Origin: Candidatus Amesbacteria bacterium
GTDB taxonomy: Bacteria; Patescibacteriota; Microgenomatia; CAZETR01; Amesbacteraceae
Direction of reading: 5' to 3'
DNA length: 64,000 nt
NCBI GenBank assembly: GCA_963736875.1
Contig: CAVTQH010000002.1
Coordinates: 5,294-69,293, forward strand
The notes below the pieces were generated by a model, which searched no databases, was not told the DNA's origin, and was given only the letters and a program-made list of their open reading frames with translations. Shown here piece by piece: positions 17,798-37,199 of the stretch (within the stretch, counting starts at the first letter, position 1; every line of letters begins with the position of its first letter). A program made the translations under genes and the position numbers.

Positions 17798-17847
17798 GAC
17801 GGAATTATAAACTAAAAGTTCAAAAGTTTCAACTATAGGCCTATTTG

Positions 17848-18120
17848 CTCCCCCGCAGGGATTCGAACCCCGAACCTTGTCGTTACAGAAATCCTCTTGT
17901 TACCAAAAGGTCTGGACTATCTCATGTCCGACGCAAATCGGACCCAGGTATATAGTCTCTACACATTTAGCCCAATTCACATCGGACATTTAGCTCGGGA
18001 TTTTCCTTCGAAGTTTGAGTCAAGAAGGGGTTCCCCGAATTAGCCTGGTTTTTCAATCCCGATTGCTCGGGAAAGCTGCCTCTCCGACAGCGACCTGCTC
18101 TACCGTTGAGCTACAGGGGA
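17848..18120 (-). tRNA. tRNA-Asn(GUU) interrupted by a ~201-nt group I intron in the anticodon loop
   Basis: On the minus strand, 5' exon 18120-18087 = TCCCCTG TA GCTCAACGGTAGAGC A GGTCG CTGT. 3' exon 17885-17848 = TAA CGACA AGGTT CGGGG TTCGAAT CCCTG CGGGGGA G. The 7-bp acceptor stem is complementary across 273 nt. Spliced product is 72 nt with anticodon loop CUGUUAA. Confidence 0.75.
17886..18086 (-). ncRNA. group I intron (no ORF) within tRNA-Asn
   Basis: 5' exon ends in U that can pair with G of an intronic GCAGC guide (P1 gcugu/gcagc). Intron ends in G (...ttctg). P/Q/R/S-like core elements attcggggaa / aatcccgagc / gtagagactata / gagatagtccag, with GACTA:TAGTC pairing (P7). Confidence 0.65.
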
Positions 18121-32636: not shown

Positions 32637-33212
32637 TTATATCCGTTTTTCGTCTCCGTAATGGCCTTTATCCCCAGCCACACCCCGGCAATACCTATTC
32701 CCAAGCGGAAAACTGCCGTGTAAATTAACCCAAAAAAGCATTAATACCGGATACCATTTCCTCAGCTTTCTCCACCCGGCTTCATTCCATAGCCAACGCA
32801 CTAAAATCGCCAGCAAAAGCCATGATACTACCTGCACCCTCACCCCGAACCGGGACAGCATCACCGACCAGGTTAATAATGCCGCCGTCCAGCCAATTTT
32901 CCCTTCTTTTAAGGGTACCGCTATTAACACTGCTCCAACCGCTATCACGGCGTAGATTGCGGCCAGCCCCGTCATCCCCAACCAGGGAAACAGTTTGTAC
33001 CAAAGTACCTCTGTCCCCCACCCATAATCTACAAACGGATAACTGGGCATTGTGTAGGAAAACAGGTCCCTTGCAGGAATCCCCGTCTTGGCAATTACTT
33101 CTCCCATCCGCAAATGCCACCCGAAATCCGCGTCCAGAATCATGGCCCCGTTTGCCGCAAACACCAGCCACACTCCCGCCAAAACCACCCACCCCCGCTT
33201 CCCGATTTTACT
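32637..33212 (-). CDS. N-terminal half of paralog 2 (disrupted copy)
   Basis: MSKIGKRGWVVLAGVWLV...DADFGWHLRMGEVIAKTGIPARDLFSYTMPSYPFVDYGW aligns with the paralog 1 N-terminus. Ends in junk (GNRYCRGVAGDKGHYGDEKRI). Start re-chosen so as not to overlap the tRNA at 33247. Confidence 0.4.
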   Translation of the reverse strand, partial: SKIGKRGWVVLAGVWLVFAANGAMILDADFGWHLRMGEVIAKTGIPARDLFSYTMPSYPFVDYGWGTEVLWYKLFPWLGMTGLAAIYAVIAVGAVLIAVPLKEGKIGWTAALLTWSVMLSRFGVRVQVVSWLLLAILVRWLWNEAGWRKLRKWYPVLMLFWVNLHGSFPLGNRYCRGVAGDKGHYGDEKRI

Positions 33213-33246
33213 CATGACAACAATTTTACCAGCGAATATCTCCACC

Positions 33247-33321
33247 CGAATGCTAAAATTAGCTTTGAGCACCCATAGTTCAACGGATAGAATAAGGGCT
33301 TGCGGAGCCTTTGATGACCGT
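33247..33321 (+). tRNA. tRNA-Arg (anticodon reads GCG)
   Basis: GCACCCA TA GTTC-AACGGATA-GAAT A AGGGC TTGCGGA GCCTT TGAT GACCG TTCGATT CGGTC TGGGTGC G CCA. Confidence 0.6.
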
Positions 33322-33361
33322 TCGATTCGGTCTGGGTGCGCCATATTCCAACATAAATGAA

Positions 33362-33450
33362 GGTGGGGTGCAGGAGTGGCTTAACTGCCAGGTCTCGAAA
33401 ACCTTGGGTCCGTTTACACGGGCACGCGAGTTCGAATCTCGCCCCCACCG
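33362..33450 (+). tRNA. tRNA-Ser(CGA)
   Basis: GGTGGGG...anticodon loop CTCGAAA, long variable arm, GCGAG-TTCGAAT-CTCGC, CCCCACC-G. Confidence 0.75.
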
Positions 33451-33525
33451 CACCAGAAAGCTCCCTTAGCTCAATGGAAGCGGCTTCGCCTAATCCATTT
33501 TGCTTTCGGTCGCTCATTTACATTC

Positions 33526-33597
33526 GCTCCCTTAGCTCAATGGATAGAGTAGCAGTTTCCGGAACTGCTGATGTGAGTCCGATTCTCACAGGGAGCG
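33526..33597 (+). tRNA. tRNA-Arg(CCG)
   Basis: GCTCCCT TA GCTCAATGGATAGAGT A GCAGT TTCCGGA ACTGC TGAT GTGAG TCCGATT CTCAC AGGGAGC G. Confidence 0.8.
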
Positions 33598-33601
33598 CCG
33601 A

Positions 33602-33865
33602 TTAAATCTTATTCTCCAGAGGAAATTTCTCCTGTACCCACTTGGCTGTCTTATCCATCCAGGTAGCCTGCGGTTTCTCAAACAATAAGTACTTTTCCAT
33701 CACCTTTTCCACTTCATTATCTTTACTCCCCTCCACCGGCAGATAAAATCTCCCCATTACCCCTGTTTTTAACTCCAGTGCCAATAACTTGGTCCCCAGC
33801 TTTTCCTCCCACCACCACCTTGACAACTCCCACCACATATACAACCGGCCGAATGCTCTTATCAC
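33602..33865 (-). CDS. bPH (bacterial PH-like) domain membrane protein, C-terminal part (frameshifted)
   Basis: LELKTGVMGRFYLPVEGSKDNEVEKVMEKYLLFEK is clean coding sequence; the preceding 15-20 residues look out-of-frame. Confidence 0.4.
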   Translation of the reverse strand: MIRAFGRLYMWWELSRWWWEEKLGTKLLALELKTGVMGRFYLPVEGSKDNEVEKVMEKYLLFEKPQATWMDKTAKWVQEKFPLENKI

Positions 33866-34115
33866 CCTTGTTAGTAATCGAATATTCCACCTGCTCCGGA
33901 GGGGTTCTGGTTATTGCATAATAGTAAAAAGCCCCGGCAATAATTACCAATAAAAGCATGAATTCACGGGCAAAAATCAACACCAGTCCGACTAAAATAC
34001 CCAATACCACCAATACCGACCGTGTTTGTTCCTCTGCCGGTTTATAAGGCCTGCTCTTGGCCTTCCAGGAAAGCAGCACTTTCTCCTGCTCCACCCGGGG
34101 TAGTTCATCTGCCAT
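33723..34115 (-). CDS. bPH-domain membrane protein, N-terminal part (frameshifted)
   Basis: Charged N-terminus, two TM helices, EYSITNKGDKSIR bPH-like start. After ~aa 90 it degenerates into VVYVVGVVKVVVGGKAG. Overlaps 33602..33865 by 143 nt in another frame. Confidence 0.4.
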   Translation of the reverse strand: MADELPRVEQEKVLLSWKAKSRPYKPAEEQTRSVLVVLGILVGLVLIFAREFMLLLVIIAGAFYYYAITRTPPEQVEYSITNKGDKSIRPVVYVVGVVKVVVGGKAGDQVIGTGVKNRGNGEILSAGGGE

Positions 34116-34179
34116 GTTTTAAATATAGCACAAATACTCCGCTCTCTTAAATGTTATAATTTTGAAGCTAAATCCATCA

Positions 34180-34270
34180 GGAAGGGTCGCATAGTGGCCT
34201 AGTGCGGAGGTCTTGAAAACCTCTACCCGATGCTCACGTCGGGTCGCGAGTTCGAATCTCGCCCCTTCCG
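34180..34270 (+). tRNA. tRNA-Ser(UGA)
   Basis: GGAAGGG...GAGGT-CTTGAAA-ACCTC, long variable arm, GCGAG-TTCGAAT-CTCGC, CCCTTCC-G. Confidence 0.85.
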
Positions 34271-34391
34271 CACCAACTTTCAGTTGCGAAGAAAGAGACC
34301 GGATAACAAAGTATTGCTAGCCAACGCACACCATCCCGCCCCTTTCACACACAACCCCACAGGTCAACTTCTTTCTTTCTGGTATCAACAG

Positions 34392-34479
34392 CGGAGGAGG
34401 TGGGATTCGAACCCACGTGAGCCTTGCAGCTCAGGAGTTTAGCAAACTCCCCGAATGGACCAGACTATCGGACTCCTCC
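34392..34479 (-). tRNA. tRNA-Ser(GCU)
   Basis: Minus strand GGAGGAG...GGAGT-TTGCTAA-ACTCC, long variable arm, GTGGG-TTCGAAT-CCCAC, CTCCTCC-G. Confidence 0.85.
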
Positions 34480-35466
34480 CTGACCTCTCAAAAGTCTGGG
34501 GTTGTGGGTACCAATAACTCGAAGGTACCTCTCTACCTCACTCTGATTATACAACCATACCTGCTTATTCTTCGTGTTTGAAATCACTTTCGGAGTCATA
34601 TCTAGATTCTCCAGAACCCTAGTCACAAATTCCAGTAGTGGAACCGACCTATTACTAAAACAAATCTTTAAATATCTGTATTCCTTATTGTTAACCTTGT
34701 ATTTGTGCACAAAAACTCCCCCATCAGTATCCATTAACCCCCTCACACAAGCCATTTTATATTCATGTCTTTCTTCAATCCAACTCGGAACTCCAACCTG
34801 CTGTTTGACTTTATTTCCCACTTTTAAGCCCAGTTCAACCAAATATTCAACCAGCTTCTTACCGCTACAAAAAATGACATTGGCCTTACAGTCTTTCCTT
34901 TTAGAAAACGGGGGTACAAAATTAAAAAGCCTACTTATCAACCCCACAACAAAACCCAAATACTCCTTATCGGCCTCACTATTCAAAGTTATACATACCT
35001 GACTCTGTGTAATCCCACCATCGCCCAATAAAATCCCCACAAACTCAGCCAATTCTGCACTTCTAACCCTCAAAAAGTTAAACTCCCTAGCCCGAGGGAT
35101 TATCCCTCTCTCGCGCAGAATCGCCAAAGTCTTCGCTCCACCCGCCCTTCTCCCTTCTAAAGTAGCAAAACTCCCATGCTTTCTATAGCAAGCCCATCCC
35201 CCCAACTTCCCCTTAAAACTCTTGTCCTCCATCCACCTCCTCCTTAAAACCCCAAGCTCTTCAGGTAACACTACCCCAAATCTCTCACTCAAAAGCACCG
35301 CCGCACCCAAACTCATATTCAACTGACCCCTTCTCCAGTCTCGATAACTCCTCCCTACAACGCCGGCCATCGCTGCCAACTCTTCACACTTCAGTCCACT
35401 TTTTAGCTCAATGTCTAACAAAAACTTCCTCTGTTTCCCCTCTCCAAACTTCACTCTTGCTTGCAT
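34465..35466 (-). CDS. free-standing double-motif LAGLIDADG homing-endonuclease-like protein with N-terminal HTH
   Basis: Two LAGLIDADG-type motifs, ILLGDGGIT and LMDTDGGVF, about 100 aa apart; N-terminal helix-turn-helix-like segment. The 3' end overlaps the tRNA-Ser(GCU) 5' end by ~15 nt. Confidence 0.6.
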   Translation of the reverse strand: MQARVKFGEGKQRKFLLDIELKSGLKCEELAAMAGVVGRSYRDWRRGQLNMSLGAAVLLSERFGVVLPEELGVLRRRWMEDKSFKGKLGGWACYRKHGSFATLEGRRAGGAKTLAILRERGIIPRAREFNFLRVRSAELAEFVGILLGDGGITQSQVCITLNSEADKEYLGFVVGLISRLFNFVPPFSKRKDCKANVIFCSGKKLVEYLVELGLKVGNKVKQQVGVPSWIEERHEYKMACVRGLMDTDGGVFVHKYKVNNKEYRYLKICFSNRSVPLLEFVTRVLENLDMTPKVISNTKNKQVWLYNQSEVERYLRVIGTHNPRLLRGQGGVR

Positions 35467-35514
35467 ACCTATTCCATACCCATCCTAACAAAACCCGAAC
35501 ATTAAATCAACTGT

Positions 35515-36198
35515 TCACCGCGCCAGTACCAATCCCCAGACAGATTTTACCCCGCCCTTTTTCAATACCCTGGCACACTCGTTCATTGTCGCTCCGGTAG
35601 TCCACACGTCATCCACCAGTAAAACAGTCTTTGGTAATTGATTTTTAGTCTTTAGTTTGAAAGCATCCTTCATTGCATCCAATCTTTGTGCCCTGTCTCT
35701 TCCCACCTGTCTTCCTGTATCTCTGACTCTTAATAGTAAATTTTTCATCTCCAGCGACCAGTGACTGGCGACCAATCGGCCGATTACTTCTGCCTGATTA
35801 AATCCCCTTTCTTTTTCCCTTTTCGGATACAGGGGTACCGGTACAACTACCGGTTTTCTTTCCACAAAACCATTCAGACCGGCATATTCCGGTATTTCAC
35901 TCACCCGATCATTTACATCCCTTAAAAGCTCTCCCAGGTAATCGTAATAAAACCGGTGTTTCGCCTGCTTGATAAGTTTTCTGGCTATCCCCTCGTATGC
36001 CCAAAAACAGGTCAATCCTTCCATCCCGTACGGCTCCCGGCAATATTTATGTCTCAGCCCATACCTGCTGCCCCGCCGGCACTGGGGACAAATCTGCTCT
36101 TCTTCCCACAATCCCACCTCACATTTCTCACACACATAGCCTCCGATTTTCCCGCATCCCACGCATTTTTTTGGATATAAAACATCCAATAAGTTCAT
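35515..36198 (-). CDS. comF: ComF/GntX-family phosphoribosyltransferase (competence protein ComFC-like)
   Basis: N-terminal zinc-finger cysteines CVGCG...CEKC...CPQCRR; C-terminal PRTase motif VLLVDDVWTTGATMNE. Confidence 0.75.
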   Translation of the reverse strand: MNLLDVLYPKKCVGCGKIGGYVCEKCEVGLWEEEQICPQCRRGSRYGLRHKYCREPYGMEGLTCFWAYEGIARKLIKQAKHRFYYDYLGELLRDVNDRVSEIPEYAGLNGFVERKPVVVPVPLYPKREKERGFNQAEVIGRLVASHWSLEMKNLLLRVRDTGRQVGRDRAQRLDAMKDAFKLKTKNQLPKTVLLVDDVWTTGATMNECARVLKKGGVKSVWGLVLAR

Positions 36199-36264
36199 GT
36201 GTCAACTTTACTCCCTCCAAACCTTCTGCTCCAGGCTGGATTATGATATAATACAGGCTATATT

Positions 36265-36650
36265 GGGGATGACGGGTATCGCCAGATAAGCACCTTGAAA
36301 TTTCGGCAAGCCGAGCTTGAATCACGCTCGTAAAACAGATTCAAACCAAAGTGCTGATTTAAAAGCACAAGTGAAAGGTTTTTTAGCTAGTCTAAATCCT
36401 TTTACCCAGACTCGCCCCGCGTACGTTTTTAACGCTTAAGCTGGGGTGATCCGGCACCTTAAATTTGCGTCCTTAATCGCAGTTTAAAGTGAAAACCTAA
36501 TTAAGGTGCTCTCCAAAAGATTATGGTTAGTCTCATTGGGGAAAAGATAATTAACCGCCAGCCGTTAGGAGCTTTATCCTAAACAAGCTTGTAACAAACC
36601 GAAATCCGAGACTTATTTGCACGAGGGTTCAACTCCCTCCATCTCCACCA
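36265..36650 (+). ncRNA. ssrA: tmRNA (transfer-messenger RNA)
   Basis: 5' GGGGATGACGGG... and 3' ...GAGGGTTCAACTCCCTCCATCTCC-A-CCA form a tRNA-Ala-like acceptor/T-arm. smpB is encoded immediately downstream. Candidate tag frame begins at a GCA codon ~100 nt in and ends at TAA 36436-36438. Confidence 0.75.
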
Positions 36651-36746
36651 AACGCTCTTTTTGACCTTCTGAGCTTCTGATTAGATTGATAACATGAGCT
36701 AAATTTGTTGACTTTTCGCAATTAAATGGAATAATAAAAACAGATT

Positions 36747-37199
36747 ATGAACGAACAAGACCAAATTGTAGAAAGAAAAAGCAATCTCCCAACCCCAGAA
36801 CGATTTCAAATGGCTGGCAAACTCTCAGATTTAATGGCAAAGACAACTGATTTAGATGAGCCAGAGCACCAAGAAGCTATGGAATTAGGCCTGTCCTTAG
36901 GAACTACAGTAGATGATATGTCGAAAGCAAGAAGAGAACTTTCATCCCTAGCAATCCAGGCAATATCTAAGCCCGAATTATTAGGACAAGTAAGTGTATC
37001 CATGCCTCCCATAAACGACCGGGAGGTTTCAAAAAGACTTACCCAAGTTGCCTCATTGCCAGTCGACTTAAATCTCGCACAAGCCAAAGAACTTTATACA
37101 TACGGCTTTACATTGGGAGTCAGTTCTGATGAACTAAGTAAAATAAGAGGAGAGTTGTCCTCTGGGTCAAGAAAAGCAATAAAAGGAACCGGGATATAA
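36747..37199 (+). CDS. hypothetical protein with internal duplication
   Basis: Two similar segments, LGLSLGTTVDDMSKARRELSS and GFTLGVSSDELSKIRGELSS. Confidence 0.35.
   Translation: MNEQDQIVERKSNLPTPERFQMAGKLSDLMAKTTDLDEPEHQEAMELGLSLGTTVDDMSKARRELSSLAIQAISKPELLGQVSVSMPPINDREVSKRLTQVASLPVDLNLAQAKELYTYGFTLGVSSDELSKIRGELSSGSRKAIKGTGI

Follow-up and report, generated by a model that had tools for sequence, protein, structure and literature searches.

An HTH-LAGLIDADG endonuclease gene overlapping tRNA-Ser(GCU) in Candidatus Amesbacteria, and its tRNA-Ser-linked family

Introduction

Why does a gene for a LAGLIDADG-type endonuclease stand free on a bacterial chromosome, with its 3' end inside a tRNA gene? 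This question is raised by an open reading frame (ORF) of 333 amino acids that we have analysed in a stretch of 64,000 nucleotides (hereafter the window, to which all coordinates refer) of contig CAVTQH010000002.1 from Candidatus Amesbacteria bacterium, whose assembly (GCA_963736875.1) comprises about 1 Mb in 5 contigs and carries 43 tRNA genes. Homing endonucleases are typical residents of introns and inteins; those that stand free have been described chiefly in phages and organelles. A preliminary description, made from the sequence alone, had called the ORF a "mobilised or domesticated homing endonuclease". That phrase brackets both of the readings that remain after the present analysis, but it missed that the ORF and tRNA-Ser form a conserved unit and that many members of the family carry tRNA 5'-like stubs.

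Results

The endonuclease gene and its protein

The ORF occupies 34465..35466 (-), starts with ATG and ends with a TAG at 34465-34467, and a search of its own genome showed a single copy. The two LAGLIDADG-type motifs attributed to it read as stated, namely motif 1 (FVGILLGDGGIT) with D149 (codon 35020-35022, context GILLGD149GG) and motif 2 (RGLMDTDGGVF) with D248 (codon 34723-34725). They belong to a monomeric double LAGLIDADG core at residues ~130-326 (34489..35079, -), which was assigned on the basis of Pfam and fold matches: LAGLIDADG_3 (PF14528) matches residues 235-319 above its cut-off (E = 2.8e-10), while LAGLIDADG_2 on the first domain and LAGLIDADG_WhiA (E = 0.0039) are weak matches below theirs. 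Sequence searches of NCBIfam and PDB gave only low-scoring matches, namely to I-Tsp061I, to I-DmoI and to intein proteins, of which no more than the endonuclease part was covered. A full-length AlphaFold2 (AF2) model built on 62 relatives, with a predicted local distance difference test score (pLDDT) of 93.5, predicts a helical N-terminal region followed by two alpha-beta-beta-alpha-beta-beta-alpha domains in a pseudo-dimeric arrangement. Its top Foldseek match is I-Tsp061I (E = 3.5e-12, TM-score 0.74 on the target); VMA intein endonucleases, I-AniI, I-DmoI, PI-PfuI and PI-SceI-type enzymes are further matches, and WhiA structures (8dy9_I, 3hyi; E ~2e-6) stand lower in the list.

The N-terminal helix-turn-helix (HTH) that had been proposed was recovered as an XRE/Cro-type domain at residues ~10-65 (35272..35439, -) when residues 1-132 were modelled separately (AF2, pLDDT 92.2). 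Its Foldseek matches include controller (C-) proteins of restriction-modification systems such as C.Esp1396I, as well as HipB, SinR, DdrO and P22 c2, with probability 1.0, TM-scores of 0.6-0.8 and a root-mean-square deviation of ~2 A over ~57 residues, at E-values of only ~1e-2. The domain is followed by two long helices (71-97 and 103-119) and a conserved GG..G..T.EGRRKGG motif. In the alignment of 62 sequences W44 is invariant, G148-D149-G150 and D246-T247-D248-G249 are invariant down to 28% identity, and conservation spans the whole protein length, the N-terminal domain included. The ratio of nonsynonymous to synonymous substitution rates (dN/dS), calculated for pairs with unsaturated dS, is 0.09-0.26, indicating purifying selection. 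We infer a nuclease activity from these sequences, and with D149 and D248 invariant and such dN/dS values the enzyme is likely to be active. PADLOC and PHROGs gave only generic homing endonuclease or endonuclease models, and membership of a particular defence or phage family was rejected on this basis.

The 3' end of the ORF overlaps the 5' end of tRNA-Ser(GCU) (34391..34479, -; ARAGORN), a "type A" allele (GGAGGAGTCCGATAG...CTCCTCC), as had been noticed earlier. The overlap is 15 nt (34465..34479, -): the last four sense codons and the stop (GGA GGA GTC CGA TAG) are tRNA nucleotides 1-15, and the TAG falls in the D-loop. The same -15 arrangement is found in L136, L020-L023, L025, L029 and L003 among the related loci. 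The serine isoacceptors of this genome are all single copy, and the overlapped tRNA is its only AGY decoder. RF00005 was not listed for this tRNA, since clan competition gave its place to a 20.3-bit match to transfer-messenger RNA.

The tRNA downstream of the ORF is complete in itself, and Rfam scans of positions 33000-37000, both at the gathering thresholds and at E<=1, gave no intron family, in agreement with the view that the ORF lies outside any intron or intein. An intron or intein context was rejected also because the NCBIfam intein models cover the endonuclease part only, with <=25 bits against cut-offs of >1000. The genome does carry an intron-containing tRNA, as the preliminary description said: tRNA-Asn(GUU) at 17847-18120 (-) has a ~200-nt group I intron in its anticodon loop (Rfam Intron_gpI, 38.8 bits, under the gathering value of 50, E = 2.8e-8). 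This intron is ORF-less and has no visible connection to the endonuclease gene, so that the link drawn between the two is unsupported.

Linkage to tRNA-Ser across the family

The placement of the ORF directly before a tRNA-Ser gene is the defining, conserved architecture of a large family and not a matter of chance. A search of 5.8 billion proteins gave 472 relatives with a uniform length of ~330 amino acids, the closest at 68% identity, and a profile search of 1.84 billion cluster representatives (50% identity) gave 886 matches at E<=1e-30 and 2637 at E<=1e-10. We took 80 loci from species-representative genomes, which by record title belong to Patescibacteria of many classes, Omnitrophota, Nitrospira (one closed chromosome) and a few others. 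ARAGORN assigned a same-strand tRNA-Ser directly 3' of the ORF in 70 of these 80 loci, with a stop-to-tRNA gap of -102 to +82 nt. Five of the ten exceptions hold the tRNA too when inspected by eye (contig end or overlap), which raises the number to 75; the other five have an inverted tRNA (four loci) or none (one locus).

Of 401 genomes sampled evenly from the phylum, 11 (~3%), the window's own counted, have a full-length member, and all ten new members precede tRNA-Ser (GCU, UGA, GGA or CGA). The copy described as solitary beside a tRNA cluster is single in its genome but not stray; its position is the characteristic one of the family. Shorter relatives of the LAGLIDADG core stand before tRNA-Ser(GGA), tRNA-Tyr(GUA) or tRNA-Gln(CUG), or directly after tRNA-Leu(CAA). 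On the maximum-likelihood tree the anticodon label changes 16 times against a shuffled mean of 33.4, and none of 200 shuffles was as low. The clades also track host groups, as Microgenomates-type GCU (including the window), Parcubacteria-type GCU, Omnitrophota CGA and Nitrospirota UGA, and the comF-ORF-tRNA-Ser(GCU) synteny is common to the Microgenomates-type and Parcubacteria-type loci. We found no description of a tRNA-linked LAGLIDADG family in the searchable literature.

Several observations were made on these loci besides. Many contigs among L012-L091 that have a typical Patescibacteria tRNA/comF context are titled "uncultured Gammaproteobacteria", "Pseudomonadales", "Nevskiaceae" or "Bathyarchaeia"; several titles look mis-assigned, and host labels taken from record titles are unreliable. 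The ORFs adjoining tRNA-Leu(CAA) in L127, L130, L131, L132 and L134 are ~200-residue LAGLIDADG ORFs without the HTH; in L132 and L134 the ORF begins ~5 nt past the tRNA, a mirror image of the Ser arrangement, and in L127 and L131 it overlaps the tRNA. In L047 and L062 of the GGA clade the ORF does not meet a co-oriented tRNA but extends into a 29-nt 5' fragment of tRNA-Ser in inverted orientation (complement of GGAGAGGTCGCATAGTGGCCTAGTGCAAT), which suggests a local inversion at the cassette. Well-formed tRNA-Ser genes with the anticodon ACU (loop TTACTAA) have been found in several Microgenomates-type relatives (L010:3859-3946, L096:1337-1429, L104:2229-2317, L102:1914-2000, L033:3994-4082 and others), where they come besides GCU and UGA and in one clade are the tRNA after the endonuclease gene; a serine tRNA with A34 is unusual in bacteria. 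In L010 a large serine recombinase gene (2369-3889; Resolvase, Recombinase and Zn_ribbon_recom domains) overlaps the tRNA-Ser(ACU) at 3859-3946 and adjoins the tRNA-Ser(ACU)/endonuclease/tRNA-Ser(GCU) unit of this close relative.

Presence, absence and decay

The comparison of related genomes that had been proposed gave filled, empty and remnant sites. Any family member is present in 9 of 41 relatives. Within the window's host family, G000 and G024 have the gene at the GCU site. The site is empty in G023, G042, G019 and others; in the three named genomes 44-47 nt separate the tRNA from the adjacent tRNA. G023 and G042 have a TATAAT ~11 nt before the tRNA, and so does G002 at ~10 nt; in G002, G006 and G011 the region upstream of the tRNA yielded no remnant of the family. 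G022 carries an in-frame 47-codon deletion remnant, in which the promoter and start region are fused to the last ~40 codons including those for WLYN. Premature stop codons occur in L028 and L022. Paralogous members stand at Ser(CGA) in G012 and G009 and at Ser(GGA) in G005 and G041; in the window itself, the site between Arg(GCG) and Ser(CGA) is empty and 18 nt long. Filled, empty, deleted and pseudogene states are thus all found at tRNA-Ser sites.

A further observation concerns G012 (L093) and G021 (L095), where the divergent tRNA-Ser(GCU) and tRNA-Ser(UGA) are separated by a 362-nt spacer that corresponds to the slot of the endonuclease gene in G024 of the same genus. This spacer contains two small conserved ORFs for hydrophobic membrane peptides of ~67 and ~35 amino acids, and no remnant of the endonuclease gene was found in it in either genome.

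The protein identities to the window for the endonuclease and for the adjoining comF product are 61% and 61% in G024, 46-47% and 35-39% in Gottesmanbacteria-titled records, and 36-39% and 26-34% in Parcubacteria-type loci. Taken together, the sequences point to an old element with mostly vertical inheritance, which has often been lost and has been kept functional where it survives.

Linked tRNA alleles

The window's tRNA-Ser(GCU) is 88-93% identical to the nuclease-linked tRNAs of L021-L024 and L029, three of which are titled Gottesmanbacteria and whose comF products, where comparable, are 35-39% identical. Against the alleles without a nuclease gene in its own host family (G019, G002, G011) the identity is 76-81%, though comF is 52-64% identical there, and these alleles differ in acceptor stem, D-arm and T-loop. 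The family's nuclease-linked Ser(CGA) and Ser(GGA) genes have a common GGAGGAG...CTCCTCC acceptor frame and similar T-arms, and the window's own Ser(CGA) and Ser(GGA), which have no nuclease gene, are without this frame. In L136 or G024 as compared with the window, the ORF and its tRNA shift as a block relative to tRNA-Ser(UGA). This incongruence of alleles and the block shift would fit co-conversion, or a nuclease and tRNA that move together.

Leaders, stubs and promoters

Promoter-like matches in 73 loci form two peaks, one just 5' of the ORF start and the other in the ~125 nt that immediately precede the tRNA. For the second, loci of the Parcubacteria-type clade have a -35 box (TTGAAA) within conserved His-Leu-Lys codons and a -10 box between the stop and the tRNA, at 8-15 nt from the latter; members of the window's clade have the ORF fused onto the tRNA. 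In most clades the 5' -10 box is followed immediately by GGAG(R)TATGGCTGAGTCG..., and the start codon stands at "tRNA positions 7-9" in Parcubacteria and Omnitrophota types, while Microgenomates types have GGAGGTGTGGCATAGCAGAT and then ATG. When scored with a position weight matrix of tRNA-Ser nucleotides 1-16, 27 of the 73 leaders were over the 95th percentile of control windows inside ORFs (3.7 expected), at a constant position. Independent lineages show clear cognate stubs: tRNA-Gln stubs precede the Gln-linked ORFs of L125 (z = 5.4) and L129 (z = 5.8), and tRNA-Ser stubs are seen in L117 (z = 3.5), L119 and L073 (17 of 19 positions identical to its own tRNA). The proposal that each stub is a copy of the tRNA of its own locus was rejected, because local alignments were overall no better than those to shuffles (mean 6.3 vs 5.8), and assignment of stubs to tRNA allele types A, B or C gave no discrimination.

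In the window, comF lies directly upstream of the ORF (comF stop at 35515-35517), and a promoter-like element for the endonuclease gene begins 4 nt past that stop at 35482..35510 (-). It consists of TTGATT (35510-35505), a 17-nt spacer with TTCGGGTTTT, and TAGGAT (35487-35482), ends ~15 nt from the ATG, and scores 8/12, under the threshold of the promoter scan. It belongs to a second leader type, TTGACA-n4-TTCGGGTTTT-n2-TAG(G/T)AT, which the window has in common with its closest relative L136, the G022 remnant, L026, L031, L033, L036, L037 and L087. A repeated operator was rejected: TTCGGGTTTT has a single exact occurrence in the window, and a scan of the genome with one mismatch gave 230 matches without evident pattern, among them one similar leader-like match at C4 (-), index 82895.

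The codons for W-L-Y-N (TGG TTG TAT AAT) contain a candidate internal -10 box for tRNA-Ser(GCU), TATAAT at 34546..34551 (-), at a distance of 67 nt from the tRNA. Of 17 members of the window's clade 16 have the hexamer, which the G022 remnant retains as well; the clade keeps TGG CTG/TTG TAT AAT, and 12 of 18 members use CTG, a rare Leu codon. Proof at the codon level failed, because conservation of TAT and AAT is no stronger than that of TTT elsewhere and only the rare CTG stands out. The window also retains TTGAGA-16-GATAGT, whose -10 is now inside the tRNA.

Two other observations were made next to this locus. The first 19 nt of tRNA-Arg(CCG) (GCTCCCTTAGCTCAATGGA) are repeated at 33460-33478, 47 nt upstream of the complete gene at 33526-33599; this is a stub-then-full-tRNA layout without an ORF, and may be the scar of a lost cassette. 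Between the tRNA groups, the overlapping ORFs 33602-33865 and 33723-34115 (33602-34115, -) resemble one gene split by a frameshift.

Discussion

Proposed homing with a linked tRNA, and known systems

The reading to which we give a little more than an even chance, by analogy with SegB intronless homing or mitochondrial mORFs, is that of a free-standing homing endonuclease that forms a cassette with tRNA-Ser. The unit of the family, of which the ORF is an intact member, consists of a putative promoter, often a tRNA 5'-like stub, the nuclease ORF, and a complete tRNA-Ser that lies between about -100 and +80 nt from the stop codon. The enzyme would cut tRNA-Ser loci without the cassette, and repair of the break would copy the nuclease gene together with its linked tRNA allele, that is, intronless homing with co-conversion. 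A resident cassette would be hard to lose, with the sole tRNA-Ser(GCU) transcribed through the nuclease gene or from a promoter inside it, and the element would then persist mainly vertically with occasional decay. In the present genome, where the tRNA contains the stop codon, cutting of a read-through transcript by RNase P would deprive the nuclease mRNA of its stop, and expression would be kept low. We infer the target site, the homing, the co-transcription and the RNase P effect from these comparisons.

In phage T4 the SegB nuclease gene lies in a tRNA cluster, and its action gives preferential inheritance of the tRNA region (PMC2330249). The present family resembles SegB and the other seg/mob genes in being a free-standing nuclease gene among tRNA genes with a similar presence/absence polymorphism (PMC2330249), and the ORF of the window likewise has its own promoter-like leader, lies outside an intron or intein and adjoins a conserved gene. 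The SegB model, in which the enzyme cuts the allele without the nuclease gene and repair copies the gene and flanking tRNA markers by co-conversion, is also the one proposed here. The likeness is one of mechanism and not of protein family: SegB is a GIY-YIG enzyme of a phage that acts in co-infections, whereas the present proteins have an HTH and LAGLIDADG domains, no GIY-YIG domain is present in the ORF product, and their genes lie on cellular chromosomes. Unlike SegB, the family is fused to one tRNA identity, is conserved across phyla and is mostly vertical.

The mORFs of fungal mitochondria (Allomyces and Glomus; atp6, atp9, cox2 and nad3) carry with them a substitute for a segment of the gene, and a stub stays behind (PMC3630166). 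Here too the endonuclease ORF would arrive together with a replacement for part of the gene that it invades, and the native part would be left as a stub; the hosts of mORFs, however, are protein-coding genes whose 3' end is duplicated, whereas here the host is a tRNA gene, many relatives have a 5' stub upstream, and the ORF is followed by the tRNA in full. The mORF-type stub is seen in relatives and is not clearly recognisable in the window.

The best structural and sequence relatives of residues 130-326 are monomeric LAGLIDADG enzymes of archaea and inteins (I-Tsp061I, I-DmoI, PI-PfuI and the Tli VMA intein endonuclease), which like the ORF product have two motifs per chain and both acidic residues, but reside in rRNA introns or inteins and are without the 130-residue XRE-HTH N-terminal extension. 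In the Candidate Phyla Radiation (CPR), LAGLIDADG genes have been reported in group I introns and insertions of 16S and 23S genes, and homing into conserved RNA genes has been proposed (PMC11270868). They belong to the same phylum and nuclease superfamily as the present ORF, but lie inside rRNA-gene insertions; the main text of that paper contains no "tRNA", "free-standing" or "HTH".

Points against homing

Several results weigh against the homing cassette. No cleavage, target site or transfer event has been directly caught. The tRNA after the ORF is complete, and the homing model has no explanation of how the cassette's own allele would escape cutting. G021, which has no nuclease gene, and G024, which has one, carry nearly the same tRNA allele, so that the allele can exist without the nuclease. 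The stub is a generic class II tRNA 5' end that has been inherited with the family and not renewed at each site; the 15-nt leader of the window is at best weakly tRNA-like (10 of 14 positions against the L013 stub, by eye), and that of L136 is not tRNA-like at all. The internal TATAAT is only suggestive as a promoter of tRNA-Ser(GCU). The identity of the endonuclease tracks that of comF (Spearman 0.63, p = 0.003, with non-independent points), a co-divergence that fits long vertical descent, and among the 5.8 billion proteins there were no near-identical copies across different hosts, the closest being the relative at 68%.

Alternative readings

A bolder form of mobility, which we regard as rather unlikely though with a real chance of being correct, is a drive for tRNA-gene replacement. 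Each HTH-LAGLIDADG lineage would target a single tRNA identity (the Ser isoacceptors in the present case, and Tyr, Gln and Leu for the shorter relatives), would cut the 5' half of the resident tRNA gene and would overwrite it with a linked, cut-resistant allele, and the old tRNA 5' end would stay as the promoter and start region of the nuclease gene. This would explain tRNA-Ser alleles at odds with the species tree. If true, essential tRNA genes of ultra-small bacteria and of some other phyla would be exchanged horizontally by nuclease cassettes.

The main rival of the homing cassette, which we judge unlikely, is a domesticated or addicted resident that is no longer mobile and is kept for a host use or for the promoter of an essential tRNA. 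It could serve as an XRE-HTH regulator acting on the tRNA-Ser promoter, as a guardian against incoming or rearranged tRNA-Ser alleles, which it would cut, or as a factor for recombination of the Ser/Arg tRNA cluster. Strong purifying selection over the whole length including the N-terminal domain, divergence parallel to that of comF, clades that largely follow host groups, the common comF-ORF-tRNA-Ser(GCU) synteny and the lack of recent transfers among the sequences seen would all suit such a resident; the promoter spacer TTCGGGTTTT, conserved in distant members, could be an operator, and the G022 remnant retains exactly the promoter-bearing ends. The sparse distribution, with ~3% of the sampled phylum genomes and about one third of the family, and the association with different tRNA-Ser genes in different genomes argue in the other direction, as does the dispensability evident from the G022 deletion, from empty sites in many close relatives and from pseudogenes. 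In addition, the catalytic Asp residues are invariant, whereas the domesticated LAGLIDADG protein WhiA lacks them, and no host function is evident.

WhiA, a transcription factor of Gram-positive bacteria that has lost the catalytic residues, has a C-terminal HTH and is near-universal in its lineages, also combines a LAGLIDADG scaffold with an HTH in a free-standing bacterial gene. We consider it very unlikely that the ORF product is a non-cutting factor of this kind, whose scaffold and HTH only bind DNA near tRNA-Ser genes: against the WhiA structures among the fold matches (8dy9_I, 3hyi), the weak Pfam LAGLIDADG_WhiA match and the repressor-type HTH stand the metal-binding Asp and the GDG/DTDG contexts invariant in 62 sequences, an N-terminal XRE-type HTH that is not WhiA's C-terminal type, top fold matches that are active homing enzymes, and a distribution in only ~3% of phylum genomes. 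That the ORF is encoded by an intron or intein, or lies in the intervening sequence of a split or interrupted tRNA, as the tRNA 5' fragment upstream of many relatives, the NCBIfam matches to intein-containing proteins and the group I intron in the genome's tRNA-Asn might suggest, is extremely improbable, given the complete tRNA-Ser(GCU) downstream, the negative Rfam scans, the restriction of the NCBIfam matches to low-scoring endonuclease parts, and an ORF that has its own ATG and a promoter-like leader right after the comF stop.

Significance

The family is chromosomal, extends over several phyla, is tied to one class of essential RNA genes and carries a DNA-binding extension of its own. A domesticated family would be the second case, after WhiA, in which bacteria have co-opted the LAGLIDADG fold. 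If the homing cassette is the correct reading, tRNA genes can be overwritten by a selfish element and exchanged between lineages, the element would exemplify a parasite sheltered by the promoter of an essential gene, and natural monomeric LAGLIDADG enzymes would become available by the hundred, with targets that are related and can be inferred.

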